A stretch of 64,000 nucleotides of DNA, taken from Enhydrobacter aerosaccus (GTDB taxonomy: Bacteria > Pseudomonadota > Alphaproteobacteria > Reyranellales > Reyranellaceae). Position numbers and translations under genes: made by a program. The notes beneath the pieces were generated by a model, which ran no database searches, was not told the origin of the DNA, and was given only the letters and a program-made list of their open reading frames with translations. The stretch lies in contig CAIWTJ010000204.1 of assembly GCA_903915535.1 (NCBI GenBank), forward strand, positions 37,863 to 101,862. Direction: 5' to 3'. Positions 36,442 to 52,264 of this stretch are shown one piece after another (within the stretch, counting starts at the first letter, position 1; each line of letters opens with the position of its first letter).

Positions 36442-36885
36442 TTAGGACTTCGGCTCCAGCCAGTCGTGTTCGAGCGTCCGCATCCGGCCGGTGATCGCGA
36501 AGAGAAAGGCTGTCGACCAGCCGAACAGCAGCAGGCCGTTGGCCCCCTCGATGGCGCCGAACAGTCGCCAGCGGTGATCGAGCACGACGTCGCCATAGCC
36601 GATCGTCGTGAAGCTGGTCGTCGAGAAATAGAGCGCCGATTCGAAATCGGACAGCGCCCCGATGGTGAGGTAGGCGAAGGCGTAGGACCAGATCTCGACC
36701 GTATGGATCGCGACCAGCCCCAGCACGACGAACAGGATCGCCGCGCCCTGGCCCGTCCACTTCTCGTGGGCACGAAAGCGATGGCCGCTGCGGCGCAGCA
36801 GCCAGATCAACCCCAGCAGTCCGATGAAATGAATCGTGACCGTCAGTCCCACCATGAACGTGGCAAGAAAGAAGTTCGCGATCAT
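36442..36885 (-). CDS. small potassium-channel family protein (Ion_trans_2, TTIGYGD filter)
   Basis: Last 147 aa of ORF 36442..38163. Three hydrophobic helices, a pore helix and the selectivity filter FTTIGYGD. The ATG overlaps the ADH stop (ATGA). No RCK or ligand domain. Confidence 0.8.
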   Translation of the reverse strand: MIANFFLATFMVGLTVTIHFIGLLGLIWLLRRSGHRFRAHEKWTGQGAAILFVVLGLVAIHTVEIWSYAFAYLTIGALSDFESALYFSTTSFTTIGYGDVVLDHRWRLFGAIEGANGLLLFGWSTAFLFAITGRMRTLEHDWLEPKS

Positions 36886-38012
36886 CCGTGCGGCACCAGG
36901 ATCTGGCGCACCGTGGCCACGTCCTGCAGGCGATCGAAGCCTTCGTTCAGCTCGTCGAAGCCGATGCGCTTGCTCACCATGCGATCGACCGGCAGCTTGC
37001 CCTGCTGATAGAGCGCGATGAAGCGCGGGATGTCGCGCACCGGCACGCAGCTTCCCATGTAGGAGCCTTTGATCGTCTTCTCCTCGCTCACCAGCTGGCT
37101 CTGCTTGAAGGAGAAATCCGCGGCGATCGGCGACAGGCCCGCCGTCACCGTCGTGCCGCCCCAGCGCGTGACGAGATAGGCCGTCTCCATCGCCTTGATG
37201 GTGCCCGCGAGATCGAAGGCGTAGTCGACGCCGCCGTTGGTGAGATCGCGCACCTGCTTGATATGGTCGGCGTCCCTGGCGTTCACCGTGTCGGTGGCGC
37301 CGAGCTGGCGCGCGAGACCGAGCTTGTCGTCGCTGAGGTCGATGGCGACGATGCGGCTCGCGCCCGCCAGCACCGCGCCCAGCAGGCCCGAAAGGCCGAC
37401 GCCGCCCAGGCCCACGATGGCCACCGTGCTGCCGGGCTGGATCTGGGCGGTGTTCACGACGGCGCCCACGCCCGTCACGACAGCGCAGCCGAACAGCGCC
37501 GCGACGTCGAGCGGCAGGCTCTTGTCGATCACGACGATCGAACCGCGGTCGACCACGGCATATTCCGCGTAGCACGACACGCCGGAATGATGGTTCACCG
37601 GCTTGCCGTCGAGATGCAGGCGATGATGGCCCGACAGCAGCTGTCCCGCCGCCCGCGGCGTGATCGAGCGTTCGCAGATATAGGGACGGCCCTCGAGGCA
37701 GCGCCGGCAGCGGCCGCAGCTCACGTTGAACGTGAAGCAAACATGGTCGCCCTTCTTCACGTCGTGCACGCCCGGGCCGACCTCGACGATCTCGCCCGCG
37801 CCCTCGTGGCCGAGCACGATCGGCACCGGGCGCGGCCGGTCGCCGTTGATCAACGACAGGTCGGAGTGGCAGAGCCCGCCGCCGCCCACCTTGACCAGAA
37901 CCTCGCCCTCGCCCGGCGGATCGAGATCCACCTCGACGACGTGGATTGGCCTCGACTTGGCGAACGGCCGCGGCGCACCGCACACGGTCAGGATGGCGGC
38001 TTTCATTTTCAT
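36882..38012 (-). CDS. zinc-dependent alcohol dehydrogenase
   Basis: 376 aa. GLCHSDL, GHEGAGEIVEVG, the CGRCRRCLEG structural-Zn motif and the GLGGVGLS NAD motif. Confidence 0.9.
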   Translation of the reverse strand: MKMKAAILTVCGAPRPFAKSRPIHVVEVDLDPPGEGEVLVKVGGGGLCHSDLSLINGDRPRPVPIVLGHEGAGEIVEVGPGVHDVKKGDHVCFTFNVSCGRCRRCLEGRPYICERSITPRAAGQLLSGHHRLHLDGKPVNHHSGVSCYAEYAVVDRGSIVVIDKSLPLDVAALFGCAVVTGVGAVVNTAQIQPGSTVAIVGLGGVGLSGLLGAVLAGASRIVAIDLSDDKLGLARQLGATDTVNARDADHIKQVRDLTNGGVDYAFDLAGTIKAMETAYLVTRWGGTTVTAGLSPIAADFSFKQSQLVSEEKTIKGSYMGSCVPVRDIPRFIALYQQGKLPVDRMVSKRIGFDELNEGFDRLQDVATVRQILVPHG

Positions 38013-38756
38013 CTAGGCGATTCCTCCATCGACACGAACGATCGAGCCCGTGGTGAAACTCGACTGGCTCGACGCCAGATAAAGCGCGGCGGTGACGATC
38101 TCTTCCGGCCGGCCGCTGCGCTGCAGCGCCGCCGTCGCATTCTTCTTGTGCTCCTCCGGCCATGCCTTGCTGACATCGGTGAGAAAGCGGCCGGGCGAGA
38201 TGGTGTTCACCCGCACCTTGGGGCCGTACTCGAAGGCGAAGGCCTCGGTGACGGCGTTGAGCGCGGCCTTGGCGCCGGCATAGGGCGCGATCTGCGGCCG
38301 GGGCCTGAGCGCGCCGGCGCTGGAAATATTGATGATCGAACCGCCCTCGCCCGCCGCCATGCGGCTGCCGACCAGCGACATCAGGCGGAACGGCCCCTTG
38401 AAGTTCAGCGCCACGATGCGGTCGAACAGGCTCTCCGGCGTGTCGAGCGATGACGGTGCGAGCGGCGAGGAGCCGGCGTTGTTGACCAGGATGTCGACCT
38501 TGCCGAAGGCCGCATAGGCCGCCTCGACCAGCCCGTCGAGCTCCGGCCAGTTACCGACGTTACACGCACGGGCCACGGCCTTCCGGCCCATCGCCCTCAC
38601 CTCGGCCGCGACTTTCTCGCACGCCTCATGCTTTCGGCTGGTGATAAAGACGTCGGCGCCGTGGGCCGCAAAAGCCTTCACCATCTGGTACCCGAGGCCT
38701 CGGCTGCCGCCGGTGACCAGCGCCACCTTGCCGGTGAGGTCGAAGAGATCGCTCAT
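38013..38756 (-). CDS. SDR-family oxidoreductase
   Basis: Last 247 aa of the 1420-aa ORF 38013..42275. TGGSRGLG, NNAG and YAGAK motifs. The remainder of that ORF is antisense to the DUF2126 gene. Confidence 0.9.
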   Translation of the reverse strand: MSDLFDLTGKVALVTGGSRGLGYQMVKAFAAHGADVFITSRKHEACEKVAAEVRAMGRKAVARACNVGNWPELDGLVEAAYAAFGKVDILVNNAGSSPLAPSSLDTPESLFDRIVALNFKGPFRLMSLVGSRMAAGEGGSIINISSAGALRPRPQIAPYAGAKAALNAVTEAFAFEYGPKVRVNTISPGRFLTDVSKAWPEEHKKNATAALQRSGRPEEIVTAALYLASSQSSFTTGSIVRVDGGIA

Positions 38757-38792
38757 TTCCCACCCATGGGGCCGACTCAAGACGTTTGACGC

Positions 38793-38808
38793 TGGCATGT
38801 CACTTGCT
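38793..38808 (+). promoter_or_regulatory. candidate sigma-54 (-24/-12) promoter
   Basis: TGGCATgtcacTTGCT, compared with the consensus TGGCAC-N5-TTGCW. GG-N10-GC spacing is correct. It is oriented toward the DUF2126 gene, whose ATG is about 50 nt downstream. Confidence 0.4.
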
Positions 38809-38855
38809 AAGTGTATTGTGGAGCGAAACACACTGCCGGGCGTGAGCAGACCATA

Positions 38856-41800
38856 ATGAGCATACACGTCGCCCTCCATCATCGGACGACCTACACCTAC
38901 GACCGGCTGGTCGCCTTGGGTCCTCAGATCGTGCGCCTGCGTCCGGCGCCACACAGCCGCACGCCGATCCTGTCCTATTCGCTGACGGTCGAGCCCAAGG
39001 AACACTTCATCAACTGGCAACAGGATCCGCAGGGCAACTATCTCGCCCGGCTGGTGATCCCCGAGAAGACGAAGAAGTTCGAGGTCACGATCGACCTCGT
39101 GGCCGACATGGCCGTCACCAACCCGTTCGATTTCTTCCTGGAACCCGAGGCCGAAAGCTACCCCTTTGCCTACGACGCCTCGCTCACCGAGGAGATCGCG
39201 CCCTTTCGCAAGGTCGACGCGCCGGGGCCGCTGCTGCAGGCGTGGCTGGCGAAAGTCGATCGCAAGACGAAAGTGCGCACCATCGATTTCCTGGTCGGCC
39301 TCAACGCGCGCCTGCAACAGGAGATCGGCTACATCGTCCGGCTGGAGCCCGGCATCCAGACCTTCGAGAAGACACTCGAGAGCGCCAAAGGCTCGTGCCG
39401 CGACACCGGCTGGCTGCTGGTCGCGATCCTGCGACATCTGGGGTTCGCCGCGCGCTTCGCCTCCGGTTACCTGATCCAGCTCAAGCCCGACGAGAAGCCG
39501 CTCGAGGGACCCGAGGGGCCGACCGGCGACTTCACCGATCTCCACGCCTGGTGCGAAGTCTATCTGCCCGGCGCCGGATGGATCGGGCTCGATCCGACCT
39601 CCGGCCTGCTGGCGGGCGAAGGCCATATTCCGCTGGCCTGCACGCCCGAACCGTCGAGCGCCGCGCCGATCGAGGGCGCCGTCGAGAAGAGCGAAGTCGA
39701 GTTCGAGCACGAAATGTCGGTGAGCCGCGTGCGCGAGACGCCGCGCACCACCCGGCCCTACACCGACGAGCAGTGGAAGACGCTGCTGTGCACCGGCCAG
39801 AAGATCGAGCGCGACATAAGGAAGAACGACCTGCGCCTCACCATGGGCGGCGAACCGACCTTCGTGTCGATCGACGATATGGATGGTGCCGAGTGGAACA
39901 CGCTGGCGCTCGGCCCGGAGAAGCGACGCCTCGCGGGCGTCCTCTTCCGCAAGCTCGCCGACCGCTTCGCAAAGGGCCCGCTGCTGCACTTCGGCCAGGG
40001 CAAGTGGTACCCCGGAGAACAGCTGCCGCGCTGGGCGCTCAGCTGCCATTGGCGCAAGGACGGCGAGAAGATCTGGCGCGACCCCGCGCTCGTGGCCCTC
40101 GAGTCCAAGCCCAGCGGCGCCACGGCCGAGACGGCCAATCGCTTCGCCGCGGCACTCACCGAACGCCTGCAGCTCGATCCCGGCTATCTCTTCGAGGCCT
40201 TCGAGGACACCTGGTACTACCTGTGGCGCGAGCGGCGGCTGCCGAGCAACGTCGAAGTCGACGCCAACAAGGCCAGGGACGCGATGGAACGCGCCCGCAT
40301 CTCCAAGATCTTCGAGAAGGGTCTCGAGACGCCGGCCGGCACGGTGTTGCCGATCGCGCGCGTGCACAACGGCCGCGGCAGATGGCGCAGCGGGCTTTGG
40401 TTCCTGCGCTCGGAGAAGTGCTACCTGATCCCGGGCGATTCGCCGCTGGGCTACCGCCTGCCGCTCGACTCGCTGCCGTGGGCGGCGCCCGCCGACACGG
40501 ATGTCATCGCCGAGCCGGATCCCATGATCCAGCATCCGGCGCTGCCGCCGCTCGATTCGTTCCGGCGGGCGCCGCTCCTGCGCCAGCAACGGCCGGGCAT
40601 GCCGGCCGACGCCAATGGCAATGGTAAAGCCGACGGCGACGCGGCGACGCGCGAGGCTTGGAAGCGTGCGCTGGCGGCGGACCTCGCGGCCAAGCCCGGG
40701 GCCGGAACCTCGGCAGCCGGGATCGTGCGGACCGCGATGTCCTTCGAGGCACGCGACGGCCATCTGCACGTCTTCATGCCGCCGACCGAGCGCACCGAGG
40801 ACTATCTCGACCTCGTCACCGCGATCGAGGACACGGCCGAGGAACTCGGCCAGCCGGTGTTCATCGAGGGCTACGGCCCGCCCGGCGGCGACTCGCGCCT
40901 GCAGAATTTCAGCGTCACGCCCGACCCCGGCGTGATCGAGGTCAACATCCATCCGTCGGAGAGCTGGCAGGAGCTCGTCGAGAAGACCGCCATCGTCTAC
41001 GACGAGGCGCGCACGACGCGGCTCGGCGCGCAGAAATTCATGATCGACGGCCGCCACACCGGTACCGGCGGCGGCAATCACATGGTGCTGGGCGGACAGT
41101 CCGCCGCCGACTCGCCGCTCCTGCGCCGGCCCGACCTGCTGAAGAGCCTGCTCGGCTACTGGCTCAATCATCCGTCGCTGTCCTATCTCTTCTCGGGCCT
41201 GTTCATCGGTCCGACCAGCCAGCATCCGCGCATCGACGAGGCGCGCAACGACGCGCTGCACGAGCTCGAGATCGCCTTCCGCCAGGTCGAACCCGGCAAG
41301 CAGACGCCGCCGTGGCTGGTCGACCGCATCTTCCGCAACCTGCTGGTGGATGCGACCGGCAACGCGCACCGCACCGAGTTCTGCATCGACAAACTGTTCA
41401 CGCCAGACGCCGCCGCCGGCCGGCGCGGCCTGCTCGAGCTGCGCGCCTTCGAGATGCCGCCGCACTGGCAGATGAGCGTGGCGCAGCAGGCGCTGCTGCG
41501 CGGCCTGATCTCGGCCTTCTGGGACAAGCCCTACGAGAAGAAGCTGAGCCGCTGGGGCACGCGCCTGCACGACGACTTCATGCTGCCGCACTTCGTGCAG
41601 CAGGATTTCGAGGACGTGCTGGCCGATCTCGGCGCGGCAGGGTACCCGTTCGATCCGCAGTGGTTTGCGCCGCACTTCGAGTTCCGCTTCCCCCTGGTCG
41701 GCGAAGTGGCGCAGCGCGGCATCGAGATGGAACTGCGCAACGCACTCGAGCCGTGGCACGTGCTGGGCGAGGAGCCCGGCGGCGGCGGCACGGTGCGCTA

Positions 41801-42227
41801 CGTCGACAGCACCGTCGAGCGCCTGCAGGTCAAGGTCGCGGGCCTGAACGACGCGCGCCACAGCATCGCCTGCAACGGCTATCGCCTGCCGCTGCACGCG
41901 ACGGGCAATGCGGGCGAATACGTGGCGGGCGTGCGCTTTCGCGCCTGGGCGGCGCCGAATTCGCTGCATCCCACGATCGGCGTGCATGCCCCTCTCGTAT
42001 TCGACATCCATGACGGCTGGAGCGGCCGCGCGATCGGCGGCTGCACCTATCATGTGTCCCACCCGGGAGGCCGCAACTACGACAAGGTGCCGGTCAACGC
42101 CAACGAGGCCGAGGCCCGGCGCCGCGCGCGCTTCTTCCCGATCGGCCACACCGCGGGCCCGATGGAAGCCCCGCGGACGATCTACAACCCCGAACATCCC
42201 CTGACGCTCGACCTGCGCCGGGCCTAG
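38856..42227 (+). CDS. large transglutaminase-like protein (Bact_transglu_N + transglutaminase core + DUF2126-type C-terminal region)
   Basis: Internal start MSIHVALHHRTTYTYDR. Cys/His/Asp triad contexts GSCRDTGW, DLHAWCEVY and GLDPTSG. 1123 aa. Confidence 0.88.
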   Translation: MSIHVALHHRTTYTYDRLVALGPQIVRLRPAPHSRTPILSYSLTVEPKEHFINWQQDPQGNYLARLVIPEKTKKFEVTIDLVADMAVTNPFDFFLEPEAESYPFAYDASLTEEIAPFRKVDAPGPLLQAWLAKVDRKTKVRTIDFLVGLNARLQQEIGYIVRLEPGIQTFEKTLESAKGSCRDTGWLLVAILRHLGFAARFASGYLIQLKPDEKPLEGPEGPTGDFTDLHAWCEVYLPGAGWIGLDPTSGLLAGEGHIPLACTPEPSSAAPIEGAVEKSEVEFEHEMSVSRVRETPRTTRPYTDEQWKTLLCTGQKIERDIRKNDLRLTMGGEPTFVSIDDMDGAEWNTLALGPEKRRLAGVLFRKLADRFAKGPLLHFGQGKWYPGEQLPRWALSCHWRKDGEKIWRDPALVALESKPSGATAETANRFAAALTERLQLDPGYLFEAFEDTWYYLWRERRLPSNVEVDANKARDAMERARISKIFEKGLETPAGTVLPIARVHNGRGRWRSGLWFLRSEKCYLIPGDSPLGYRLPLDSLPWAAPADTDVIAEPDPMIQHPALPPLDSFRRAPLLRQQRPGMPADANGNGKADGDAATREAWKRALAADLAAKPGAGTSAAGIVRTAMSFEARDGHLHVFMPPTERTEDYLDLVTAIEDTAEELGQPVFIEGYGPPGGDSRLQNFSVTPDPGVIEVNIHPSESWQELVEKTAIVYDEARTTRLGAQKFMIDGRHTGTGGGNHMVLGGQSAADSPLLRRPDLLKSLLGYWLNHPSLSYLFSGLFIGPTSQHPRIDEARNDALHELEIAFRQVEPGKQTPPWLVDRIFRNLLVDATGNAHRTEFCIDKLFTPDAAAGRRGLLELRAFEMPPHWQMSVAQQALLRGLISAFWDKPYEKKLSRWGTRLHDDFMLPHFVQQDFEDVLADLGAAGYPFDPQWFAPHFEFRFPLVGEVAQRGIEMELRNALEPWHVLGEEPGGGGTVRYVDSTVERLQVKVAGLNDARHSIACNGYRLPLHATGNAGEYVAGVRFRAWAAPNSLHPTIGVHAPLVFDIHDGWSGRAIGGCTYHVSHPGGRNYDKVPVNANEAEARRRARFFPIGHTAGPMEAPRTIYNPEHPLTLDLRRA

Positions 42228-42291
42228 GCCAGGGAATGGGTCTGCCCGCGCCGGTAGACCCCGCCCGATTCGCATGCGAGTCTAAGGGGTT

Positions 42292-44826
42292 ATGGAAGCG
42301 TTACGCGGCCTGAAGTCCACGCCGGACAGCGCCTACGACGAGCTGGTCACCGGCCAGAAGTCGATCCGCTACCACTGGCAAGGCATCCTAAGTGTCATCC
42401 GTTCGCTGCCCAGCAGCGAGCAGGGCGGCGGCATGGCCGAACGCGTGGAAAGCGCGCGCCGGCAGCTCCAGGAATCGGGCGCCACGGTCAACCTGCTCGA
42501 CGAGCGCGGAACCCCCGGCTGGACCTTCGATCCGCTGCCCTTTGTGGTGGCGCCCGACGAATGGGAAGCCATCGAGCGCGGGCTGATCCAGCGCGCGACA
42601 CTGCTGGACGGCATGCTGGCCGATCTCTACGGGCCGCAGACCCTGCTCAAGGACAAGCTCGTGCCGCCGATGCTGGTCCACGCCAACCGGCACTTCCAGC
42701 GTGCCTGCCGGGTCACCGACGGCGCGGCACCGGCACGCCATCTCGCGCAATACGCCGTCGACCTCGTGCGTCAGGGCGACGGCCGCTGGTACGTGCTGGC
42801 CGACCATACCGAAGTGCCGTCGGGCATCGGCTATGCGCTGGAGATACGCCGCGTCCTCGCGCGCAGCCTGCCCGAAGCCTTCCGCTCGATCCCGGTGCGG
42901 CACCTGCGGCCCTTCGTCGACCGCTGGAACGAATCGCTGAGCGCCCTCGCGCCCGCCGACGTGACGCGGCCCACCATGGCGGTGCTGACTCCGGGTTCGC
43001 TCTCGTCGACCTATTTCGAGCATGTCTATCTCTCGCGCAGCCTCGGCGTGCCGCTGGTCGAGGGCGGCGATCTCGTGGCGCGCGACGGCCAGGTCTCGAT
43101 CAAGACGCTCACGGGACTGCGGCCCGTGCACGTGCTGCTGCGCCGCCTCGATTCGGCCTTCGTCGATCCGCTCGAGCTGCGCGCGGATTCGGCGCTCGGC
43201 GTCACCGGCCTGGTCGAGGCGACGCGCACCGCGCGCATTGCACTCGCCAACGCGCTGGGCTCGGGCGTCGTCGAGACGCCGGCGATGATGCCGTTCCTTG
43301 AACGGCTCTCGCAGAAGCTGCTCAACCAGAAGCTCGAGATCCCCTCGCTCGACGTGTGGTGGCTAGGCGAGCCCTCGGCCTACGCCTTCGTCATGGCCAA
43401 TCTCGACGGCATGATCGTGCGCCCGTGCCTGGGTCAGGACCGCGAGCCGATCATCGTGGGCATGCTCGAGCCCGCCGCCCGCAAGGCGCTCGAGGACAAA
43501 CTCCGCAGCCAGCCCGGGCATTACGTTGCGCAGTATCCGGTGGTGCCCTCGCTCAGCCCCAAGTGGGACGGCAAGGGCCTGGCGCCGTCCGCCGTGGTGA
43601 TGCGCTGCTTCGTGATCTCCGAAGGCTACGGCTACCGCGTGCTGCCGGGCGGTCTGGCGCGCGAGCCGATGGGCGACACGGCGCTGGCGAGCCTCGGCCG
43701 CCTGAACGGCACGCTGAAGGACGTCTGGGTGCTGACCGAGGATGCCGCCGACGTGCAGCTTCCCGCCGGTCGGCGCTTCCACCAGATCTCCGTCGACCGC
43801 GGCGGCGCCGACCTGCAAAGCCGCGCCGCCGACAATCTCTACTGGCTCGGCCGATATATCGAGCGTCTCGACAACGACGCGCGCCTGCTGCGCACCACCG
43901 TGACCCGCGTGGCCCAGGGCGCCATGGGCGCGCGCGACCTGGCCGAAGTGCGCCTGCTCGGCAAGCTGCTCGACCACGCCAACCTGATGGATGCCTCCGC
44001 GGCCCTCTCGATGCCCGAGAGCGCCGCTTTCCAGCAGGGGCTGGCGACGGTGGCGTCGGAGACCCGCGGCCTGCCCAAGATGCTCGACTCGATCCAGCGC
44101 CTGACCGGCACGCTGCGCGATCGTTTCTCGTCGGACATGAACGCCGCCGTCGGCCCGCTGCTGACGAACGTGCGCCAGAAGCTCCTGGAGGCGCGCGGCA
44201 ACCTCGATCCCCTGCTGGCAGCGCTCGACGACATCGTGCGCTTCGTCTCCACGCTCTCGGGCCTGGCGCAGGAGAACATGACGCGCGGCACCGGCTGGCT
44301 GTTCCTCGATCTCGGCCGCCGCCTCGAGCGCAGCCAGTTCGTGCTCGCCTCCGCGCTCGCCCCCTTCAACCAGTCGCCGATCGACTGGGATGCCGCGATG
44401 CGCATTGCACTCGAGCTTTGCGACAGCACCATCACCTATCGCACGCGCTATCTCGGCCAGCTTCAGCCGGCGCCCGTCCTCGATCTCGTGATGCTGGACG
44501 ATTCCAATCCGCGGGCGCTCGCCTTCCAGCTCAACGCGATCCACAGCCATCTGCAGCGGCTGGGCGAGGCGAGCGGTGCCTATGTGCCGGACGCATTGGA
44601 GGCCCTGCACGGCGACCTCGCCCGCGTCGTGCAATTGTTCGGCGGCGAAGAGCAGGCCTGGCGTCACGAAGGGCTGGCGCTCGCCATGCTGCGCGAGATT
44701 ACAGAGGACACCGAGCGGCAGATCGAAGACCTGTCCGAGGCGATCACGCGCGCCTATTTCAGCCACGTGCCGGCCGCGCAGGCGGTCGGTTCGATGAGTG
44801 GCGGCTCCATCACGGACGGGCGCTAG
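42292..44826 (+). CDS. circularly permuted ATP-grasp protein fused to an alpha-E domain
   Basis: 844 aa. The N-terminal ~480 aa resemble COG2308-type permuted ATP-grasp proteins (YDEL..RYHWQ, GSGVVETPAMMPFL). The C-terminal part has ADNLYWLGRYIERLDNDARLL, typical of alpha-E (DUF403). Confidence 0.85.
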   Translation: MEALRGLKSTPDSAYDELVTGQKSIRYHWQGILSVIRSLPSSEQGGGMAERVESARRQLQESGATVNLLDERGTPGWTFDPLPFVVAPDEWEAIERGLIQRATLLDGMLADLYGPQTLLKDKLVPPMLVHANRHFQRACRVTDGAAPARHLAQYAVDLVRQGDGRWYVLADHTEVPSGIGYALEIRRVLARSLPEAFRSIPVRHLRPFVDRWNESLSALAPADVTRPTMAVLTPGSLSSTYFEHVYLSRSLGVPLVEGGDLVARDGQVSIKTLTGLRPVHVLLRRLDSAFVDPLELRADSALGVTGLVEATRTARIALANALGSGVVETPAMMPFLERLSQKLLNQKLEIPSLDVWWLGEPSAYAFVMANLDGMIVRPCLGQDREPIIVGMLEPAARKALEDKLRSQPGHYVAQYPVVPSLSPKWDGKGLAPSAVVMRCFVISEGYGYRVLPGGLAREPMGDTALASLGRLNGTLKDVWVLTEDAADVQLPAGRRFHQISVDRGGADLQSRAADNLYWLGRYIERLDNDARLLRTTVTRVAQGAMGARDLAEVRLLGKLLDHANLMDASAALSMPESAAFQQGLATVASETRGLPKMLDSIQRLTGTLRDRFSSDMNAAVGPLLTNVRQKLLEARGNLDPLLAALDDIVRFVSTLSGLAQENMTRGTGWLFLDLGRRLERSQFVLASALAPFNQSPIDWDAAMRIALELCDSTITYRTRYLGQLQPAPVLDLVMLDDSNPRALAFQLNAIHSHLQRLGEASGAYVPDALEALHGDLARVVQLFGGEEQAWRHEGLALAMLREITEDTERQIEDLSEAITRAYFSHVPAAQAVGSMSGGSITDGR

Positions 44827-44828
44827 CG

Positions 44829-45707
44829 ATGCATTACCTGCTCTCGCACCGCACCTCGTACAGCTACGCCTCGACGGTGGATTCGGCGCAGCACATCGCG
44901 CATCTGCGCGCCCGGGCATTCCCCGGTCAGAGCGTGACCTCGATCGGCATCACGACCAGTCCGGAGCCCGCGCTCGCCGTCCAGCATGTCGACCATTTCG
45001 GCAACCTGATCGACATCTACCGTATCGACACGCCGCACACCCGTTTCGACATCGAAGTGCGCGCCGAGGTCGAGGTGCGCTTCCCCGATCCGCCGCCCGC
45101 GCAGGACACGCCGCCGTGGGAACAGGTGCGCGCGGCATTGATCGGCGGCGGCTTCCCGACGCCGATCGAGGCCAGCGAATTCGTCTACGAGTCGCCCCTG
45201 GTGCCGATCGATGCCGCGCTGCGCGAGTACGGCGCCAAGTCGTTCACGCCGGACCGGCCCATTCTCGCGGCGGCGTCCGACCTCATGAAGCGCATCAAGG
45301 CCGACTTCGAATACCATCCCGGCGCCACCGACATTTCGACACCGCTGGCCGATGTGTTCAGCGGCAAGGAAGGCGTCTGTCAGGACTTCGCCCACGTGAT
45401 GATCGCGGCCTGCCGGGCGCACGGGATCGCGGCCGGCTACGTCTCGGGGTACATCCGCACAGTCCATTCCAAGGAAGAGGCGGCGCTGCGCGGCAGCGAC
45501 GCCAGCCACGCCTGGGTCGCGGTGTGGTGCGGCGACAAGGCGGGCTGGATCCATCTCGACCCGACCAACGACCTGATCGCGAAAGAGGACCACGTCGCCG
45601 TGGCCTGGGGCCGCGACTTCTCCGACGTGAGCCCGTTGCGCGGCGTGATCCTGGGGGGCGGGAGCCACTCCTACGGCGTCGACGTGACGCTGATCCCTAC
45701 GGTTTAG
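44829..45707 (+). CDS. transglutaminase family protein (Bact_transglu_N + core)
   Basis: 292 aa, starting 2 nt after the previous stop. MHYLLSHRTSYSY N-terminal domain. Triad contexts GVCQDFAH, SHAWVAVW and HLDPTND. Confidence 0.88.
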   Translation: MHYLLSHRTSYSYASTVDSAQHIAHLRARAFPGQSVTSIGITTSPEPALAVQHVDHFGNLIDIYRIDTPHTRFDIEVRAEVEVRFPDPPPAQDTPPWEQVRAALIGGGFPTPIEASEFVYESPLVPIDAALREYGAKSFTPDRPILAAASDLMKRIKADFEYHPGATDISTPLADVFSGKEGVCQDFAHVMIAACRAHGIAAGYVSGYIRTVHSKEEAALRGSDASHAWVAVWCGDKAGWIHLDPTNDLIAKEDHVAVAWGRDFSDVSPLRGVILGGGSHSYGVDVTLIPTV

Positions 45708-46020
45708 CTCCTGCCGGCTGCCGCAGCATCCAGGCGGCGAACGACAGGTCGGCGGCCTCTGGCTTGCCGTCCATACGGACCTTGCAGGGATAGGCAGCGC
45801 CCGCATCGACGGCGATCACTTCCGCCGGCACCCACTGGCCTTCATACGACGCCGTGACCCGATCGCCCACGCTGCAGGCGGTGAGGCCCTTCGCGCGCAG
45901 CGGATCTTCTTTCTCCTTCCACGCTTCCTTGGGATCGCCGGCGACGGGCGGATGTTGCGTCTGCGCGAGCGATGGCAAGGCCCCCAAGAAGACCAGGGCA
46001 AAAGCGATCGCTCTTCTCAC
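45697..46020 (-). CDS. small secreted protein, paralog A (SH3/Tudor-like barrel suspected)
   Basis: 107 aa from a GTG that overlaps the paralog B stop (GTGA). Signal peptide VRRAIAFALVFLGALPSLAQ. Core: AKGLTACSVGDRVTASYEGQWVPAEVIAV...PCKV. Confidence 0.55.
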   Translation of the reverse strand: MRRAIAFALVFLGALPSLAQTQHPPVAGDPKEAWKEKEDPLRAKGLTACSVGDRVTASYEGQWVPAEVIAVDAGAAYPCKVRMDGKPEAADLSFAAWMLRQPAGAKP

Positions 46021-46391
46021 GGCCGTGCGTCTTCCGCCCGCAGTCTCCAGGGCGGGACCGAGACATCGCCCGAGGGCGGCCGGCCGATGAAATGCACCCG
46101 GCACGGAGTGACCACTGTCTGATCCTCGGACACCTCGATCACCTGGGCGGAAATCCAGCGATTCTCGTACTCGGCGAGCACCCGGTCGCCGACCTTGCAG
46201 GCCTTCAGTCCCTTGGCCTTCATCTGCTCTTCGGTTTCGCGCGAGGCATCGCCGGGACTGGACGACACCGGTGGCGGGCCTATGCCCAGCAAGCCCGGGG
46301 CCTGCATCGGCGCCAGGCTCTGTGCCGCGGCCGACGTCGCGCAGAGCACGGCGACAACAGGGACGATCGCCCGCAGCATCAGCCAAGCCAC
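46017..46391 (-). CDS. small secreted protein, paralog B
   Basis: 124 aa (alternative ATG at 46379). Signal peptide ...VAVLCATSAAAQS. The core AKGLKACKVGDRVLAEYENRWISAQVIEV...PCRV is clearly homologous to paralog A. Confidence 0.55.
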   Translation of the reverse strand: MAWLMLRAIVPVVAVLCATSAAAQSLAPMQAPGLLGIGPPPVSSSPGDASRETEEQMKAKGLKACKVGDRVLAEYENRWISAQVIEVSEDQTVVTPCRVHFIGRPPSGDVSVPPWRLRAEDARP

Positions 46392-47236
46392 TCCTTGGTC
46401 GCTTTGGTGTAGTCGGCTTCGCGGGTCACCCGCTTCATCATCTCGGCGTCGGCCACGCCCTTGAGCTTGCCGGGCTGCACGCCGTCGCGCAACGCCTGCA
46501 ACGTGTCGTGCACCGCCTTCACGGCGGCGGCGAAGGGCTGATGGCCCTGCAACGCGATGCGCACGCGCCTCGCGGAGAGGTAATCGAGATCGGTGAGGTC
46601 GCCCGACACGCCGCCCATGATGATCGGCAGCGTGGTCGCGGCCGAGATCGCGTCGAGTTCGGCGCGGGTCTTGATGCCGACGAAGAACAGCGCGTCGACA
46701 CCCACGGCCTCATAGGCCTTGCCACGCGCGATGGCGTCGTCGAGGCCTGTGATCTGGATGGCGCTGGTGCGGCCGGCGATGGACAGCAACGGGTCCTGGC
46801 GTCCGGCGAGCGCCGCCTTCATCTTGCCGACGCCTTCGGCGATCGAAACAAGACGTGGCTTGGTCGTGCCGAACGGATTCGGAAGGTCGGTGTCCTCGAT
46901 GCTCATGCCGGCGATGCCCGCGGTCTCGAGCTCCTCGACCGTGCGCTTCACCGAGAGGGCGTTGCCGTAGCCGTGATCGGCATCGACCATCAGCGGCAGG
47001 TTGCCGGCGCGGTTGATGCGATAGGCCTGGTCCGCGAATTCGCTCAACGTGAGCACGATCAGGTCGGGCGCGCCCAGCACGGCCATCGAGGCAACGGAGC
47101 CAGCGAACATGCCGAGCTCGAAGCCGATGTCCTCGGCGATGCGCGCGGAGATCGCGTCGTACACCGACCCCGGATGGACGCAACGGCTGCCATTGAGAAC
47201 GGCGCGAAAGCGTTGACGACGGTCGGTCCAGTTCAT
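46379..47236 (-). CDS. PEP mutase / isocitrate lyase superfamily enzyme, oxaloacetate decarboxylase-like
   Basis: Internal start MNWTDRRQRFRAVLNGSRCVHPGSVYD... The sequence continues ...MVDADHGYGNAL...GIAGMSIEDT and is colinear, from memory, with Pseudomonas PA4872-type oxaloacetate decarboxylase. 285 aa. Confidence 0.75.
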   Translation of the reverse strand: MNWTDRRQRFRAVLNGSRCVHPGSVYDAISARIAEDIGFELGMFAGSVASMAVLGAPDLIVLTLSEFADQAYRINRAGNLPLMVDADHGYGNALSVKRTVEELETAGIAGMSIEDTDLPNPFGTTKPRLVSIAEGVGKMKAALAGRQDPLLSIAGRTSAIQITGLDDAIARGKAYEAVGVDALFFVGIKTRAELDAISAATTLPIIMGGVSGDLTDLDYLSARRVRIALQGHQPFAAAVKAVHDTLQALRDGVQPGKLKGVADAEMMKRVTREADYTKATKEWLG

Positions 47237-47396
47237 GAAGCGAAACCCCCAATGATCGACACTATAGCTGCATTTCGAGGGGCAAACCGGCCACTCTTCC
47301 GCAGGCCCCGGCGAAGGCGTAGCGTTCTTAGCATCGGCGAGGCGGAGGCGCGACGCCCGGCGAACAAAAGAACAGGCGCCACGGGAGAGAAACGCC

Positions 47397-48770
47397 ATGT
47401 TCGAGCTGCTCGATCGACAAACACGCTTGACCGGAAACCAGCGAAAAATTCTCGCCGCCGCTATTATCGGCGACGCTCTCGAATTCTTCGACTTCTTCCT
47501 GATCGCCTTCGTGCTGCCGTTCCTGATCGGGCCGTGGAAACTCAACTTCGGACAGTCGGCCACGGTGCTGATGAGTTCCGGCATCGGCGCGATCCTCGGC
47601 GCCTACATCTGGGGCTGGCTCGCCGACAAGTTCGGGCGGCGCAAGGTCTTCATCGGCACGGTGCTGAACTTCTCCTTCGCGACCGGCCTGCTTTACTTCA
47701 CGCCGGACAACGGCTGGATCTACCTCACGATCATGCGCTTCTTCGTGGGCTTCGGCGTCGGCGGCCTCTATTGCGTCGACCTGCCGCTGGTCCAGGAATT
47801 CATGCCGACCAGCAAGCGCGGCTACATCGGAGGGCTGGTGACCTGCGTGATCCCGCTCGGCACCGGCCTTGGCGCGGTGCTCGCGGCCTTCATCCCTGCC
47901 GACCAGTGGCGCCTGCTGTTCGCGATCGGCGTGCTGCCGGCGCTGCTGGTGCTGCTGGTCCGCATCTGGGTGCCGGAGTCGCCGCGGTGGCTGGCTCGCC
48001 AGGGACGCGGCGAGGAAGCTCGCAGTGCGCTGGCCTGGGCGCTCGAGGTCGATCCCAAGTCGCTGCCAATGCCGGGTCCGGTGGAGGCGACGGTACAAGG
48101 CGGCTGGGTCGACCTGTTCAAGTACCCGCGCAGCCTGCTGGTGTCGTGGCTCGGCAATGCCGGCGCGCAGACCGGCGTCTACGGCCTTACCCTGTGGGCA
48201 CCGACGCTGTTCGTGTTGTTGCTAAAGGTCAGCCCGCAGGAAGCCGCGAAGATGATGATCCTCTGCACGGTTTCGGGATTCATCGGCCGCCTCTCCTTCT
48301 CGTGGTTCTCGGAGCGGATCGGGCGGCGAAACGCGGGCGGGCTGCTCGGCCTCGGCGCCGGTGTGCTGACGATCGTCGCCGGCCAGAACTACGACGTGAT
48401 GTGGATGGGCGTCTCGGCGTTCTGGATCCTGCTCGCGATCACCTACTTCTTCGCCGACGGCGGTTTCGCCATCGTCGGACCCTACGCCGCCGAGATCTGG
48501 CCCTCGCACCTCAAAACCTCGGGCATGGGCTCGGCCTACGGCTTCGGCGGCATCGGCAAGATCATCGGTCCGGTGGGCCTCGCCCTGATCGTGGGCTCCA
48601 GCAACTACGTGAAACCCGACGTTCCGCTACCGCAGATGCCGACGGCTTTTCTCTATCTCGGCTGCTGGTTCCTGATGGCCGGGGCGGTCTATTATTTCTT
48701 CGGGCTGGAAACCAAGGGCAAGTCGCTCGAACAGATCGACCGCGAATTGGCCGCCGGCGCCGCGGACTAA
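47397..48770 (+). CDS. MFS transporter (sugar-porter / aromatic acid symporter-like)
   Basis: 457 aa. GWLADKFGRRKV and PESPRWL motifs. Confidence 0.88.
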   Translation: MFELLDRQTRLTGNQRKILAAAIIGDALEFFDFFLIAFVLPFLIGPWKLNFGQSATVLMSSGIGAILGAYIWGWLADKFGRRKVFIGTVLNFSFATGLLYFTPDNGWIYLTIMRFFVGFGVGGLYCVDLPLVQEFMPTSKRGYIGGLVTCVIPLGTGLGAVLAAFIPADQWRLLFAIGVLPALLVLLVRIWVPESPRWLARQGRGEEARSALAWALEVDPKSLPMPGPVEATVQGGWVDLFKYPRSLLVSWLGNAGAQTGVYGLTLWAPTLFVLLLKVSPQEAAKMMILCTVSGFIGRLSFSWFSERIGRRNAGGLLGLGAGVLTIVAGQNYDVMWMGVSAFWILLAITYFFADGGFAIVGPYAAEIWPSHLKTSGMGSAYGFGGIGKIIGPVGLALIVGSSNYVKPDVPLPQMPTAFLYLGCWFLMAGAVYYFFGLETKGKSLEQIDRELAAGAAD

Positions 48771-48785
48771 CATAGGACCTGGAGA

Positions 48786-50000
48786 ATGGCCTTGGACACG
48801 TCGATCCCGTCTACCGCCGATCTTGCCGGCGACCCCAGCGTGATCTCGCGGGCCCAGGCGCTCCGGCCCATGGTCGCCGCGGCGGCCGACGAAACCGAGG
48901 AGCGGCGCCGCCTCGCGCCGGCGCTGCTCGACAAGCTGCACGAGGCGAAGATGTTTCGCCTCCTGATGCCCAAGACCGCGGGCGGGATCGAGACCGATCC
49001 CATCACCTTCTTCCACGTGATCGAGACCATCTCGAGCGGCGATGCCTCGACGGCCTGGTGCCTCAGCCAGGCCGGTGGCTGCTCGATGTCGGCCGCCTAT
49101 CTCGACCTGCCGGTGGCGAAGGAAATCTTCGGTGGCCCCCGCGATGTGCTGGCCTGGGGCCCCGGCCCCAAGGTCAAGGCGATCGAATGTGAAGTGGATG
49201 GTGTCAGCGGCTATAAGGTCACCGGCGTCTGGGCCTTCGCCTCGGGCGGACGGCACGCGACGTGGCTGGGCGCCCACTGCCCGATCTACAAGGCCGACGG
49301 CTCGCCCAGACTTGGCGACAACGGCAAGCAGCTCGAGCGCACCATGCTGGTCCGCTCGACCGACGTCGAATGGACCGACATCTGGCACACGGTCGGGCTG
49401 CGCGCGACGGCCAGCGACCAGTTCGCGCTGAACGATTTCTTCGTGCCGGCCGATCATTCGATCACCCGCGATTTCGACAAGGAATGCCGCGAAAGCGGCC
49501 CGCTCTACCGCATGGGCGCCGGCACCTGCTACCAGGTGGGCTTCTCGGGCGTGGCCTGCGGCATCGCCAAGGCCGCGCTCGACGATTTCATCGACATGGC
49601 GCGCAACAAGGTGCCGCGCGGGGCGAAGTTTCCTCTGCGCGACAATGCCGTGGTGCAGTCCAACATCGCGCAGGCCGTGATCAACCTGCGGGCGGCTCGG
49701 GCCTACCTGCTGCAGTCGATGGCCGCGATCTGGAAGGACCTGCAGGCCGGCAACACCATCTCTGTCGAACAGCGCATTATCATTCGCGGCGCGGCGACAA
49801 ACGCGATCCACAAGGCGCGCGAGGCGGTCGACACCGTCTACAACGCCGCTGGCGCCACCGCGATCTTCGAAAACCAGCCGCTCGAGCGGCGCTTCCGCGA
49901 CATCCACACCGTCACGCAGCAGCTGCAGGGACGGCTCAGCCATTTCGAAACCGTCGGCGCCTTCATGCTGGGCGCCGAAGCCGACCTCACCTTCGTCTAG
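48786..50000 (+). CDS. acyl-CoA dehydrogenase-fold protein, probably a two-component flavin monooxygenase (HsaA/DszC-like)
   Basis: 404 aa. ACAD N, M and C regions, with no obvious catalytic-Glu context for CoA substrates. A VOC protein follows. Confidence 0.7.
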   Translation: MALDTSIPSTADLAGDPSVISRAQALRPMVAAAADETEERRRLAPALLDKLHEAKMFRLLMPKTAGGIETDPITFFHVIETISSGDASTAWCLSQAGGCSMSAAYLDLPVAKEIFGGPRDVLAWGPGPKVKAIECEVDGVSGYKVTGVWAFASGGRHATWLGAHCPIYKADGSPRLGDNGKQLERTMLVRSTDVEWTDIWHTVGLRATASDQFALNDFFVPADHSITRDFDKECRESGPLYRMGAGTCYQVGFSGVACGIAKAALDDFIDMARNKVPRGAKFPLRDNAVVQSNIAQAVINLRAARAYLLQSMAAIWKDLQAGNTISVEQRIIIRGAATNAIHKAREAVDTVYNAAGATAIFENQPLERRFRDIHTVTQQLQGRLSHFETVGAFMLGAEADLTFV

Positions 50001-50455: not shown

Positions 50456-52264
50456 GTGATCACCTCGATCGAGATCAAGGCCGTCGAGCCCCTGGCGGAC
50501 GGGACGCCGTTCGGCGCGGCCGGCGCCTATGAGCGTGTCATCGGCGTCGCCAGGGGAGAGGTCGATCCCAAGGCGCCGCAGAACAAGGGCATCGCCCTGA
50601 TCGACAAGGCGCCGCTGAACGCCGCCGGCAAGGTCGAGTACGCGACCGACTTTTTCATCCTGCGGCCCAAGGATCCGGCCAAGGGCAACGGCCGCATCCT
50701 CTACGAGGTGAACAATCGCGGCCGCAAGATGCTGATAGGCAATCTCTGCGACGGCCCGCAGGGCATGAACGACCCCAAGACCGTGGCCGATTTGGGCAAC
50801 GGCTTCCCGCTGCGCCAGGGTTGGACGATCGTATGGTCCGGCTGGGACCCCGACGCCCCGCGTGCCAACATGGGCCTCGGCCTCACCGCGCCGGTCGCGA
50901 CGGACAATGGCAAGCCGATCGTGCAGACCGTGCGGGACGAGTTCGTGTCGGGCACACGCGGTGGCGCGCTCGAAGCCTTCAAGCTTTCCTACGAGCTGGC
51001 AACGCCGGAGGGTGCCAAGCTCTCGATCCGCGAGCGCCAGGCCGATACGCCGCAGGAGGTCGCCTGGACGGCAATCGATGCCAAGTCGATCAAGCTCACC
51101 GACGGCAAGCCCAAGCCCGGCTACCTCTACGAGTTCACCTACCGGGGCACCAAGCCCAAGGTGCAGGGACTGGGCTTCGCGGCAACCCGCGACTTCGTGA
51201 GCTTCCTGCGCCACGACCCTGAGGGCCGCAAGGCAACGGGCGGCGCGATCACCCATGCGCTCGCCATCGGTTTCAGCCAGGCGGGACGCTATCTCCGCCA
51301 TCACATCTCCGAAGGCTTCAATCGCGACGAGCAGGGCCGTCCGGTGTTCGACGGCATCCACAGCCACATCGCGGGCGTCGGCCGCCTCTTCTTCAACGTT
51401 CCCTTCTCCCAGCCCGCGCGCACCAGCACGCAGCACGAGGACCACACGGCGCCGGAAGCCTGGTTCCCGTTCAGCACCGCGACGCTGGAGGATCCTCTCA
51501 CCAAGCAGAAGGGCTCGTTGTTCCGCGGCGATGGTTGCGACCCCAAGCTGATCGAGACCAACACCTCGACCGAGTACTGGCAGAAGGGCGCGTCGCTGCT
51601 CACCACCGATCCGCTCGGCGGCAAGGACGTCGAGCTGCCGCCCAACACGCGGGCCTACATGATCGCAGGCACCCAGCACGGCGGCCGCGCTGGCGCCACG
51701 ACGGACGCCGGCCCCAACGTCAATCCACGCAACCCGCACAATCCGATGCCGGCCGTGCGCGCGCTGCTGGTCGCACTCGACGACTGGGTGGTGAAAGGCG
51801 TCGAGCCGCCGGCCAGCCGTACGCCCACGCTCAAGGACGGCACCCTGGTCGAGCCCGACAAGATCGGATTTCCCGCGATTGCGGGCGCGGCGGTGGCGAA
51901 GGCCACGAACCGCATCGCACCACCGGCCGGCGACACGGCCTATCGCACCCTGGTGAGCAAGGTCGACTCGGACGGCAACGAGGTCGCGGGCATTCGCCTG
52001 CCCGACATCGCCGTGCCGCTGGCGGCCTACACGGGCTGGAACGAATACAAGCCACCGTATCCCAGAGGCGAGCTCGCGGACCGCGACGGCAGCTACTTCG
52101 CCTTTGCGCCCGAGAAGATCGCGGCACGCTATGGCAACCGCGCCGGCTATGTCGCCAAGGTCAAGGCCACCATCGAGCAACTGAAGAAGGACCGGCTCCT
52201 CCTGCAGGAAGATGCCGACCGCTACATCGAGCGCGCGCAGAAGGAAGAACGCGTCGCGCCGTAA
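50456..52264 (+). CDS. conserved hypothetical protein, possibly alpha/beta-hydrolase-domain (GFSQAG elbow-like)
   Basis: 602 aa from a GTG 4 nt after the VOC stop, with consistent coding bias. Function is uncertain. The alpha/beta-hydrolase idea rests on IGFSQAGRY and on recollection of similar uncharacterised proteins. Confidence 0.55.
   Translation: MITSIEIKAVEPLADGTPFGAAGAYERVIGVARGEVDPKAPQNKGIALIDKAPLNAAGKVEYATDFFILRPKDPAKGNGRILYEVNNRGRKMLIGNLCDGPQGMNDPKTVADLGNGFPLRQGWTIVWSGWDPDAPRANMGLGLTAPVATDNGKPIVQTVRDEFVSGTRGGALEAFKLSYELATPEGAKLSIRERQADTPQEVAWTAIDAKSIKLTDGKPKPGYLYEFTYRGTKPKVQGLGFAATRDFVSFLRHDPEGRKATGGAITHALAIGFSQAGRYLRHHISEGFNRDEQGRPVFDGIHSHIAGVGRLFFNVPFSQPARTSTQHEDHTAPEAWFPFSTATLEDPLTKQKGSLFRGDGCDPKLIETNTSTEYWQKGASLLTTDPLGGKDVELPPNTRAYMIAGTQHGGRAGATTDAGPNVNPRNPHNPMPAVRALLVALDDWVVKGVEPPASRTPTLKDGTLVEPDKIGFPAIAGAAVAKATNRIAPPAGDTAYRTLVSKVDSDGNEVAGIRLPDIAVPLAAYTGWNEYKPPYPRGELADRDGSYFAFAPEKIAARYGNRAGYVAKVKATIEQLKKDRLLLQEDADRYIERAQKEERVAP

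Follow-up and report, generated by a model that had tools for sequence, protein, structure and literature searches.

What chemistry is carried out by an operon that sets ATP-dependent ligation beside transglutaminase-fold enzymes? The question is raised by three adjacent genes in a stretch of 64,000 nucleotides from Enhydrobacter aerosaccus (contig CAIWTJ010000204.1), which is referred to below as the window. An original prediction, made from the letters alone, read these genes as one ligase combined with two peptidase-fold proteins and described a conserved module of no known chemistry. The answer that we favour, with somewhat less than even confidence, is a sigma-54-dependent cytoplasmic system that makes and unmakes amide bonds, probably under nitrogen limitation. 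The count of a single ligase has to be revised, as the DUF2126 domain of the first gene is a predicted second one. From domain matches and structure models, the module is predicted to consist of two ligase/amidase pairs, in which the ligases have unrelated folds and the amidases are transglutaminase-fold domains.

The operon and its reading frames

The genes and their parts are as follows.

Gene 1: 38856-42227, + strand, 1123 amino acids (aa); Bact_transglu_N, Transglut_core and DUF2126
Gene 1 N-terminal module: 38871-39596, + strand; Bact_transglu_N (aa 6-83) and Transglut_core (aa 144-247)
Gene 1 DUF2126 domain: 39684-42218, + strand; aa 277-1121 (~845 aa), predicted glutamine-synthetase-like carboxylate-amine ligase
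Gene 2: 42292-44826, + strand, 844 aa; circularly permuted (CP) ATP-grasp fused to Alpha-E
ATP-grasp part of gene 2: 42538-43662, + strand; aa 83-457
Alpha-E part of gene 2: 43813-44760, + strand; aa 508-823
Gene 3: 44829-45707, + strand, 292 aa; small transglutaminase-fold protein

The open reading frames (ORFs) and their translations match exactly the description given from the letters, with three co-directional genes of these lengths and spacers of 64 nt (42228-42291) and 2 nt (44827-44828). At a G+C content of about 67%, the window holds long spurious ORFs in every frame; the + strand frames of the triad have a G+C content at third codon positions (GC3) of 0.89 and are therefore the real ones. 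An antisense ORF of 1420 aa (38013-42275, - strand) was rejected as a high-GC artefact merged with a real short-chain dehydrogenase (SDR) gene at 38013-38756 on the same strand. Gene 1 starts at the ATG at 38856 and not at the upstream GTG at 38811, because an identical 1123-aa protein is present in the database, homologues align from Met1 and the predicted sigma-54 transcription start lies downstream of 38811.

Every domain that had been named from the letters is recovered by a Pfam search (Bact_transglu_N, Transglut_core, DUF2126, CP_ATPgrasp_1/2 and Alpha-E). The motifs that had been quoted are all present in the translations (GSCRDTGW, DLHAWCEVY, GLDPTSG, ADNLYWLGRYIERLD, GVCQDFAH, SHAWVAVW and HLDPTND), and the catalytic contexts of genes 1 and 3 are intact as claimed, with their triads in register. 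No signal peptide or hydrophobic N-terminus was seen in proteins 1-3, whose N-termini were read from the translations. None of the three proteins is matched by an NCBIfam model, and PADLOC returned zero matches for them, so that they are not a known anti-phage defence system. Neither an Rfam family nor a tRNA was found within the 64-kb window, and no convincing terminator was found at the operon. The composition of the operon is that of its flanks and thus gives no sign of recent transfer.

Gene 1 and its predicted ligase domain

The first gene product is matched by Bact_transglu_N (1.5e-25), by Transglut_core (7e-15) and, over the complete profile, by DUF2126 (E=0, 1293 bits, positions 1-826 of 826). 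It is about 60% identical (57-63%) to orthologues in other phyla. The transglutaminase triad is formed by Cys181, His230 and Asp246, and these three residues line up with their counterparts in gene 3 when the two modules are aligned (25% identity, E 9e-19). In a profile search its PDB relatives were 3ISR and 6G49. Across diverse members of the family, the Cys is kept in 21 of 26 sequences, the His in 26 of 27 and the Asp in 27 of 27. In five divergent DUF2126 proteins (P0144, P0147, P0168, P0175 and P0189 of alignment A2) the catalytic Cys is replaced by His, Pro, Ala or Asp while the His and Asp are kept, and three further DUF2126 proteins (P0126, P0161 and P0163) are without any transglutaminase domain.

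What follows the transglutaminase module had been described as a "roughly 700-aa extension". An extension is indeed there; its length and its anonymity do not stand, as it is the DUF2126 domain of about 845 aa, predicted to be a ligase resembling glutamine synthetase (GS). Pfam names DUF2126 a "putative amidoligase", and the family of Rv2566 from Mycobacterium tuberculosis was placed in the carboxylate-amine ligase superfamily by Iyer et al. 2008 (PMC2588565). PDB sequence searches with gene 1 recover the transglutaminase part only, and a Gln-synt Pfam match is absent in gene 1.

Structure models were more informative. A first AlphaFold model of full-length gene 1, built with 64 close homologues, was poor (pLDDT 64), and Foldseek returned transglutaminase matches with it, followed almost only by glutamine synthetases. 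A second model, covering aa 277-1123 and built from a 134-sequence alignment, reached a pLDDT of 85.2 and a pTM of 0.87. With this model, all 50 of the 50 PDB matches listed by Foldseek belong to the GS superfamily: GS of many species, the gamma-glutamylmethylamide synthetase GmaS, 1-naphthylamine GS and the GCS2 protein 1TT4 (E 0.011-0.3, probability up to 0.95). PafA and Dop are absent among the 50 matches listed. Judged by the model, DUF2126 is a remote GS-like core within a much larger protein.

The invariant residues of DUF2126 include many Glu, His and Arg and are consistent with ATP-dependent carboxylate-amine ligation. Among them are K727-x-x...TGGGNH742 and LE861-L-R863-AFE, which appear to resemble the ATP-site and E-x-R motifs of GS; E333, E388, E671, E695 and R839 are further invariant positions. 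Within the DUF2126 family, the constant core is the ligase part.

Genes 2 and 3

The claim that ATP-grasp and Alpha-E share one chain is borne out by a single 844-aa ORF with matches to CP_ATPgrasp_2 (1.9e-124), CP_ATPgrasp_1 (1.8e-87) and Alpha-E (1e-57), preceded by a Shine-Dalgarno sequence (AAGGGG) ahead of its ATG. The N-terminal half resembles PDB entry 3N6X (4.9e-66), the nearest relative of gene 2 with a solved structure, and PDB sequence and profile searches with Alpha-E gave no match. In 69 sequences the W/G/R/E/R signature of Alpha-E is invariant or nearly so. Gene 3 is matched by Transglut_core (5.9e-20, aa 144-245) and Bact_transglu_N (3.9e-19, aa 3-82), and in the PDB by 3ISR (6.5e-9); its triad, Cys184, His227 and Asp244, is invariant in 59-60 orthologues. 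Since genes 2 and 3 are 2 nt apart in the window and overlap by 1 nt in Pseudomonas, they are probably translationally coupled.

A published report would give gene 3 an altogether different role. Rv2569c of M. tuberculosis, which has a transglutaminase-like cysteine-protease domain, was reported in 2024 as a secreted "serine protease" that cleaves E-cadherin, fibronectin and casein in vitro (PMC11081392). Gene 3, and by extension the cluster, would then be a secreted protease or virulence-type factor, a reading that we consider highly improbable. The activity of Rv2569c was blocked by 4-(2-aminoethyl)benzenesulfonyl fluoride (AEBSF) and phenylmethylsulfonyl fluoride (PMSF) and was unaffected by E-64 and N-ethylmaleimide, a profile that does not fit a Cys-His-Asp site of the transglutaminase fold (PMC11081392). 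Gene 3 itself is without a signal peptide and is probably coupled in translation to a cytoplasmic ligase, and the gene triad is kept across many phyla in bacteria that live free in soil and water. The protease report does not explain a cytoplasmic operon of free-living bacteria.

A sigma-54 promoter and probable nitrogen control

Between the SDR gene and gene 1, the true intergenic region measures just 99 nt (38757-38855) and holds a promoter.

Sigma-54 (-24/-12) promoter: 38793-38808, + strand; TGGCAT-N5-TTGCT = TGGCATGTCACTTGCT, 48 nt upstream of gene 1

The predicted transcription start, near 38820, leaves about 36 nt to the gene 1 ATG. The promoter has its -24 GG and -12 GC elements in the spacing of the consensus (TGGCAC-N5-TTGCW). 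The pattern TGGCAYN5TTGCW has one match within the 64 kb, at this box, where 0.09 are expected by chance. In an intergenic alignment with the four closest loci, the box is the only conserved block and the remainder has diverged. When GG and GC were held fixed and no more than one other mismatch was allowed (background 0.010 per 250 nt), a box was found within 250 nt upstream of gene 1 at 45 of 78 loci, with about 0.8 expected; these loci include Pseudomonas, Comamonadaceae, Moraxellaceae and Verrucomicrobiota. Split ATP-grasp genes, described below, have a sigma-54-like box upstream in about 10 of 27 cases, with uncertain ORF starts. No sigma-70-like promoter was found upstream of gene 1, and no NtrC palindrome was convincing by eye upstream of the box, a region that lies inside the divergent SDR gene.

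The original prediction had stated that no precursor, carrier, exporter or regulator is encoded in the operon. This holds for the first three; "no regulator" overlooks the conserved sigma-54 promoter, which implies control by an enhancer-binding protein encoded elsewhere. The operon is most likely switched on under nitrogen limitation. In Burkholderia cenocepacia, the homologous cluster I35_5080-83 (DUF404/407, DUF403, a transglutaminase and a large transglutaminase protein) is sigma-54 dependent under nitrogen limitation and 6- to 9.4-fold down in an ntrC mutant (PMC5491218). The operon falls into an NtrC-type regulon in which urease, glnA and transporters for amines or amino acids are also found. 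An RpoN box is listed for a CP_ATPgrasp gene of Bradyrhizobium, and in marine metagenomes the abundance of these domains correlates with that of urea-metabolism domains.

A link to nitrogen regulation would also suit a nitrogen reserve, that is, a non-ribosomal poly-amino acid or oligopeptide comparable to cyanophycin or poly-gamma-glutamate, which the ligases polymerise and the transglutaminase-fold enzymes depolymerise. Two amide ligases and two amidases without template or carrier follow the logic of cyanophycin synthetase and cyanophycinase, and a cytoplasmic location agrees with the absence of signal peptides at the N-termini. However, induction during nitrogen limitation has the wrong sign for a nitrogen-rich store, and Pseudomonas, Burkholderia and Mycobacterium, all of which carry the operon, are not known to make a polymer of this type. 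Similarity to CphA or Pgs was also absent in the Pfam and PDB searches, and we regard a reserve as improbable.

Distribution and conservation

The gene 1 search covered 1.84 billion representative proteins in clusters at 50% identity. The family comprises 12,481 clusters at E<=1e-3, a number that falls to 2,936 at E<=1e-30, and some members are without the transglutaminase domain. A locus scan with one genome per species gave at least 597 loci, the best 80 of which were analysed; they come from Alpha-, Beta-, Gamma- and Deltaproteobacteria, Acidobacteriota, Verrucomicrobiota and Planctomycetota. Among these 80, gene 1 is as a rule followed by ATP-grasp/Alpha-E and then by the transglutaminase. 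This order is kept across at least four phyla, which answers the gene-neighbourhood check that had been proposed. ATP-grasp and Alpha-E are found in one ORF directly downstream of gene 1 at all 72 of the 72 loci that hold both halves. The same triad is given by independently called, Pfam-annotated genes of Pseudomonas triticicola.

Matches at 80-90% identity carry Reyranella-type names, from which the organism is judged to be a Reyranella-like alphaproteobacterium. Outside the Reyranella clade, median identity is 67.8% for the gene 1 transglutaminase part, 57.5% for the gene 1 ligase part, 41.0% for gene 3, 40.7% for ATP-grasp and 31.2% for Alpha-E. The absolute level of these values is biased, since the 80 loci were taken from the top of the gene 1 ranking and lean towards close relatives; the contrast within loci is not. 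The conservation level of gene 1 is typical of enzymes with universal substrates.

Only one neighbour recurs across phyla: 26 of the 80 loci have, in addition, an ATP-grasp gene (~480 aa) and an Alpha-E gene (~330 aa) that are not fused, here called the optional second set. It is often placed directly upstream of gene 1, at times with a further small transglutaminase, and it is absent from the window. Examples are L009:7491-9991, L005:6820-9413 and L023:4699-7260. At loci with both the second set and the small transglutaminase, the pattern ATP-grasp/Alpha-E/transglutaminase occurs twice, with DUF2126 fused to the first transglutaminase. Across the 80 loci, no ORF of 25-89 aa that could encode a tag is conserved around the triad beyond one genus or family, and no carrier, protease/unfoldase or transporter is conserved with it.

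These negatives bear on the function that has been proposed in print. Iyer, Aravind and co-workers predicted protein tagging for such systems (PMC3495828, PMC2588565, PMC5666114), with transglutaminase-fold proteins removing the tags written by ATP-grasp enzymes (PMC3495828). In a form that needs no tag gene, the ligases would add amino-acid or short-peptide tags to proteins (e.g., poly-Glu, as RimK and TTL do), the transglutaminase-fold proteins would de-tag them, and the fate or turnover of proteins would thereby be controlled in nitrogen starvation. Proteins or peptides are the typical substrates of transglutaminase-fold enzymes and of the Bact_transglu_N module, Alpha-E could serve to recognise the targets, and induction by nitrogen starvation fits recycling of the proteome. 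Sister operons of split ATP-grasp, Alpha-E and transglutaminase, moreover, often end with the proteasome-like Anbu (PMC6376114, PMC5666114). The DUF2126 form, however, is not accompanied by a tag, unfoldase or proteasome-like gene, and the structural relatives of DUF2126 are small-molecule gamma-glutamyl ligases and not PafA/Dop. Even in the Anbu operon, the proteins gave no complex in pull-downs and Anbu was without peptidase activity (PMC6376114), and no modified protein has ever been reported. Tagging of this kind is the main rival to the reading that we favour, and it appears rather unlikely to us. A more specific version, in which the triad writes and erases gamma-glutamyl or short-peptide marks on highly conserved proteins, two ligases against two transglutaminase-fold enzymes, and so recycles or reprograms the proteome in nitrogen starvation, is unlikely as well, and slightly more so.

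Proposed mechanism

For the making and unmaking of amide bonds that we favour, the chemistry of related enzymes is a guide. Characterised GS-superfamily ligases all activate the gamma-carboxylate of glutamate, and transglutaminase-fold enzymes work via a thioester on gamma-glutamyl amides or peptide bonds. Taken together, these two chemistries make sense of the gene 1 fusion: one domain would write a gamma-glutamyl-type amide and the other would erase it. Precedents for such opposition exist: the glutathionylspermidine synthetase/amidase of E. coli, GspSA, combines in one polypeptide a papain-like thiol amidase and an opposing ATP-dependent amide ligase, and in PuuA/PuuD and PafA/Dop a GS-superfamily ligase is paired with an amidase.

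In the proposed scheme, the GS-like ligase would phosphorylate a glutamate-type gamma-carboxylate and join an amine to it, and the ATP-grasp enzyme would add or extend a second amide linkage. The transglutaminase-fold thiol enzymes would attack the same kind of amide (gamma-glutamyl or iso-) via an acyl-thioester, followed by hydrolysis or transfer. Gene 1 would thus hold one pair in a single chain, while gene 2, with Alpha-E as an obligatory partner, and gene 3 would form the other, and each ligase/amidase pair would set the level of a conjugate as in GspSA, PuuA/PuuD and PafA/Dop. The physiological role may be the capture or re-allocation of nitrogen.

As for the substrate, we lean, without reaching even odds, towards a small, universally available nitrogen-containing metabolite or short peptide and not an encoded tag. 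This preference is drawn from four points: the absence of an encoded tag, carrier or protease; the use of free glutamate and small amines by the structural relatives; the conservation of gene 1, which is like that of a core metabolic enzyme; and membership in an NtrC-type regulon. From comparison with relatives, then, we infer the gamma-glutamyl chemistry, the opposing ligase/amidase logic and the small-molecule substrate.

Several points weigh against this proposal. That DUF2126 is a ligase is predicted only from its fold and motifs. In the PDB, no GS, GCS2 or PafA chain was found by phmmer or by a profile of 30 sequences, and the Foldseek matches are weak, with a best E of 0.011, a TM of about 0.3 and about 290 of 847 residues aligned. 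The divergent DUF2126 proteins that lack the transglutaminase Cys or the whole domain mean that the opposing-amidase logic is not universal. The usual substrates of transglutaminase-fold enzymes are proteins or peptides, a point in favour of tagging, and the related Anbu operons include a proteasome-like subunit. On the regulatory side, the sigma-54 box was present at just 45 of 78 loci at the threshold used, and the locus sample has the bias noted above; nor is an ATP-consuming synthesis that is induced during nitrogen limitation self-evidently adaptive. Lastly, the searchable full-text literature to 2026, outside which many subscription journals lie, yielded no substrate, product or phenotype for any member. 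The statement that comparative-genomic predictions exist for the triad and that it has no defined substrate or product is accordingly upheld for that literature, with the Rv2569c protease report as a caveat.

Genomic neighbourhood

Around the operon, the window holds the following genes.

Zinc alcohol dehydrogenase (ADH): 36882-38012, - strand, divergent from gene 1
Short-chain dehydrogenase (adh_short 1.7e-51): 38013-38756, - strand, divergent from gene 1
PEP_mutase-family protein: 46379-47584, - strand, downstream
MFS sugar-type transporter: 47397-48770, + strand, downstream
Acyl-CoA-dehydrogenase-like protein: 48786-50000, + strand, downstream
Abhydrolase_10 protein: 50456-52264, + strand, downstream

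These flanks were rejected as functional partners. All are metabolic genes unrelated to the triad; those downstream show no conserved association with it, and synteny of the SDR/ADH pair is confined to the closest loci, those of the Reyranella clade. In atypical loci, the genes that separate gene 1 from gene 2 (DUF885, HYR, DUF1552, histidine kinase and TPR proteins) are equally uninformative as partners.

A convergent ORF (45697-46386, - strand) overlaps the end of gene 3 by 11 nt and is absent downstream of the triad in 80 of 80 loci. Its C-terminal ~100 aa resemble a small exported protein, with a signal-peptide-like stretch followed by an internally repeated segment (aa 146-222 against an upstream part, 47% identity), and in Pfam it has faint Tudor/chromo-like matches only (E 0.01-0.04).

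In ten Comamonadaceae loci (L023, L032, L036, L046, L053, L055, L057, L067, L069 and L070), a RidA/YjgF-like gene of about 152 aa directly follows the small transglutaminase, and a ComEC-like gene is divergent upstream. RidA-type imine deaminases release ammonia. Both neighbours look like lineage-specific synteny in Comamonadaceae. A metagenome-assembled genome labelled Asaia bogorensis (L033, CAMDCE010000047.1) has a gene 1 that is 82% identical to that of the window and is syntenic including ADH and SDR, like the Reyranella loci; the label or the content of this bin is probably wrong.

Significance

The system is among the most widespread and best-conserved bacterial enzyme systems without assigned chemistry, and it is present in Pseudomonas, Burkholderia and Mycobacterium. 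The window copy offers nothing beyond the copies in thousands of other genomes. What the analysis provides are handles on the chemistry: a GS-like second ligase, which probably acts on a gamma-glutamyl group; a sigma-54 promoter, which points to nitrogen limitation as the condition in which to study the operon; and two thiol amidases, which can be trapped by Cys-to-Ala mutation. Once this chemistry is solved, either nitrogen metabolism will have gained a new branch or a further protein modification will be known in bacteria. Should the reading as protein marks be true, the system would be a widespread bacterial counterpart of pupylation or of tubulin-type polyglutamylation.

Comparison with known systems

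Where does the operon stand among systems already described? By fold, the model of DUF2126 matches only the GS superfamily among the matches listed. It differs from members of that superfamily in being twice the size, in having extra N- and C-terminal domains, and in coming with neither Pup nor a proteasome. With GspSA, the link of gene 2 consists only of the depositor title of 3N6X, "putative glutathionylspermidine synthase". GspSA has a CHAP amidase and not a transglutaminase core, and its ligase is of the ATP-grasp type whereas that of gene 1 is GS-like; neither GSP_synth nor CHAP has a Pfam match in the triad proteins.

The Anbu operon (CP ATP-grasp, Alpha-E, transglutaminase and Anbu) shares the same three protein families, and its function is given as unknown (PMC6376114, PMC5666114). 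Its ATP-grasp enzyme releases inorganic phosphate (Pi) from ATP (PMC6376114), and, as far as the citations in two papers go, an Anbu-type operon is induced by nitrogen starvation in Pseudomonas putida (PMC6376114, PMC5666114). The window differs from it in having no Anbu (Ntn-hydrolase) gene, in its fused ATP-grasp/Alpha-E and in the added DUF2126 ligase, and no proteasome-family Pfam match was found among the neighbours of the window triad.

A further comparison is with the cluster of B. cenocepacia H111, I35_5080-5083 (BCAM1233-1236), whose dependence on sigma-54 and NtrC matches the sigma-54 promoter of the window. Judging from its description, the large protein of this cluster is presumably of the DUF2126 type. 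The difference lies in its separate ATP-grasp and Alpha-E genes, which are placed before the large protein like the optional second set.

A named counterpart is the actinobacterial cluster of M. tuberculosis, which differs in its pathogen context. Rv2567 is a fused CP-ATP-grasp/Alpha-E protein and a candidate orthologue of gene 2, and Rv2569c, which adjoins Rv2566 and Rv2567 on the H37Rv map, may correspond to gene 3. In a 2026 preprint, Rv2567 and Rv2411c were assayed and made no gamma-aminobutyrate (GABA)-trehalose. Rv2566 shares the gene 1 architecture of transglutaminase and carboxylate-amine ligase, with no Pup-like ORF nearby (PMC2588565), and was a named example when the system was described by comparative genomics in 2008-2009. 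As a kind, the module is not new, and it is found in thousands of genomes. Because the large transglutaminase-DUF2126 protein, the adjacent ATP-grasp/Alpha-E fusion and a third gene with an intact triad are all present, the window copy is an ordinary member of the known DUF2126-type amidoligase/transglutaminase triad, of the Rv2566-Rv2567 type.

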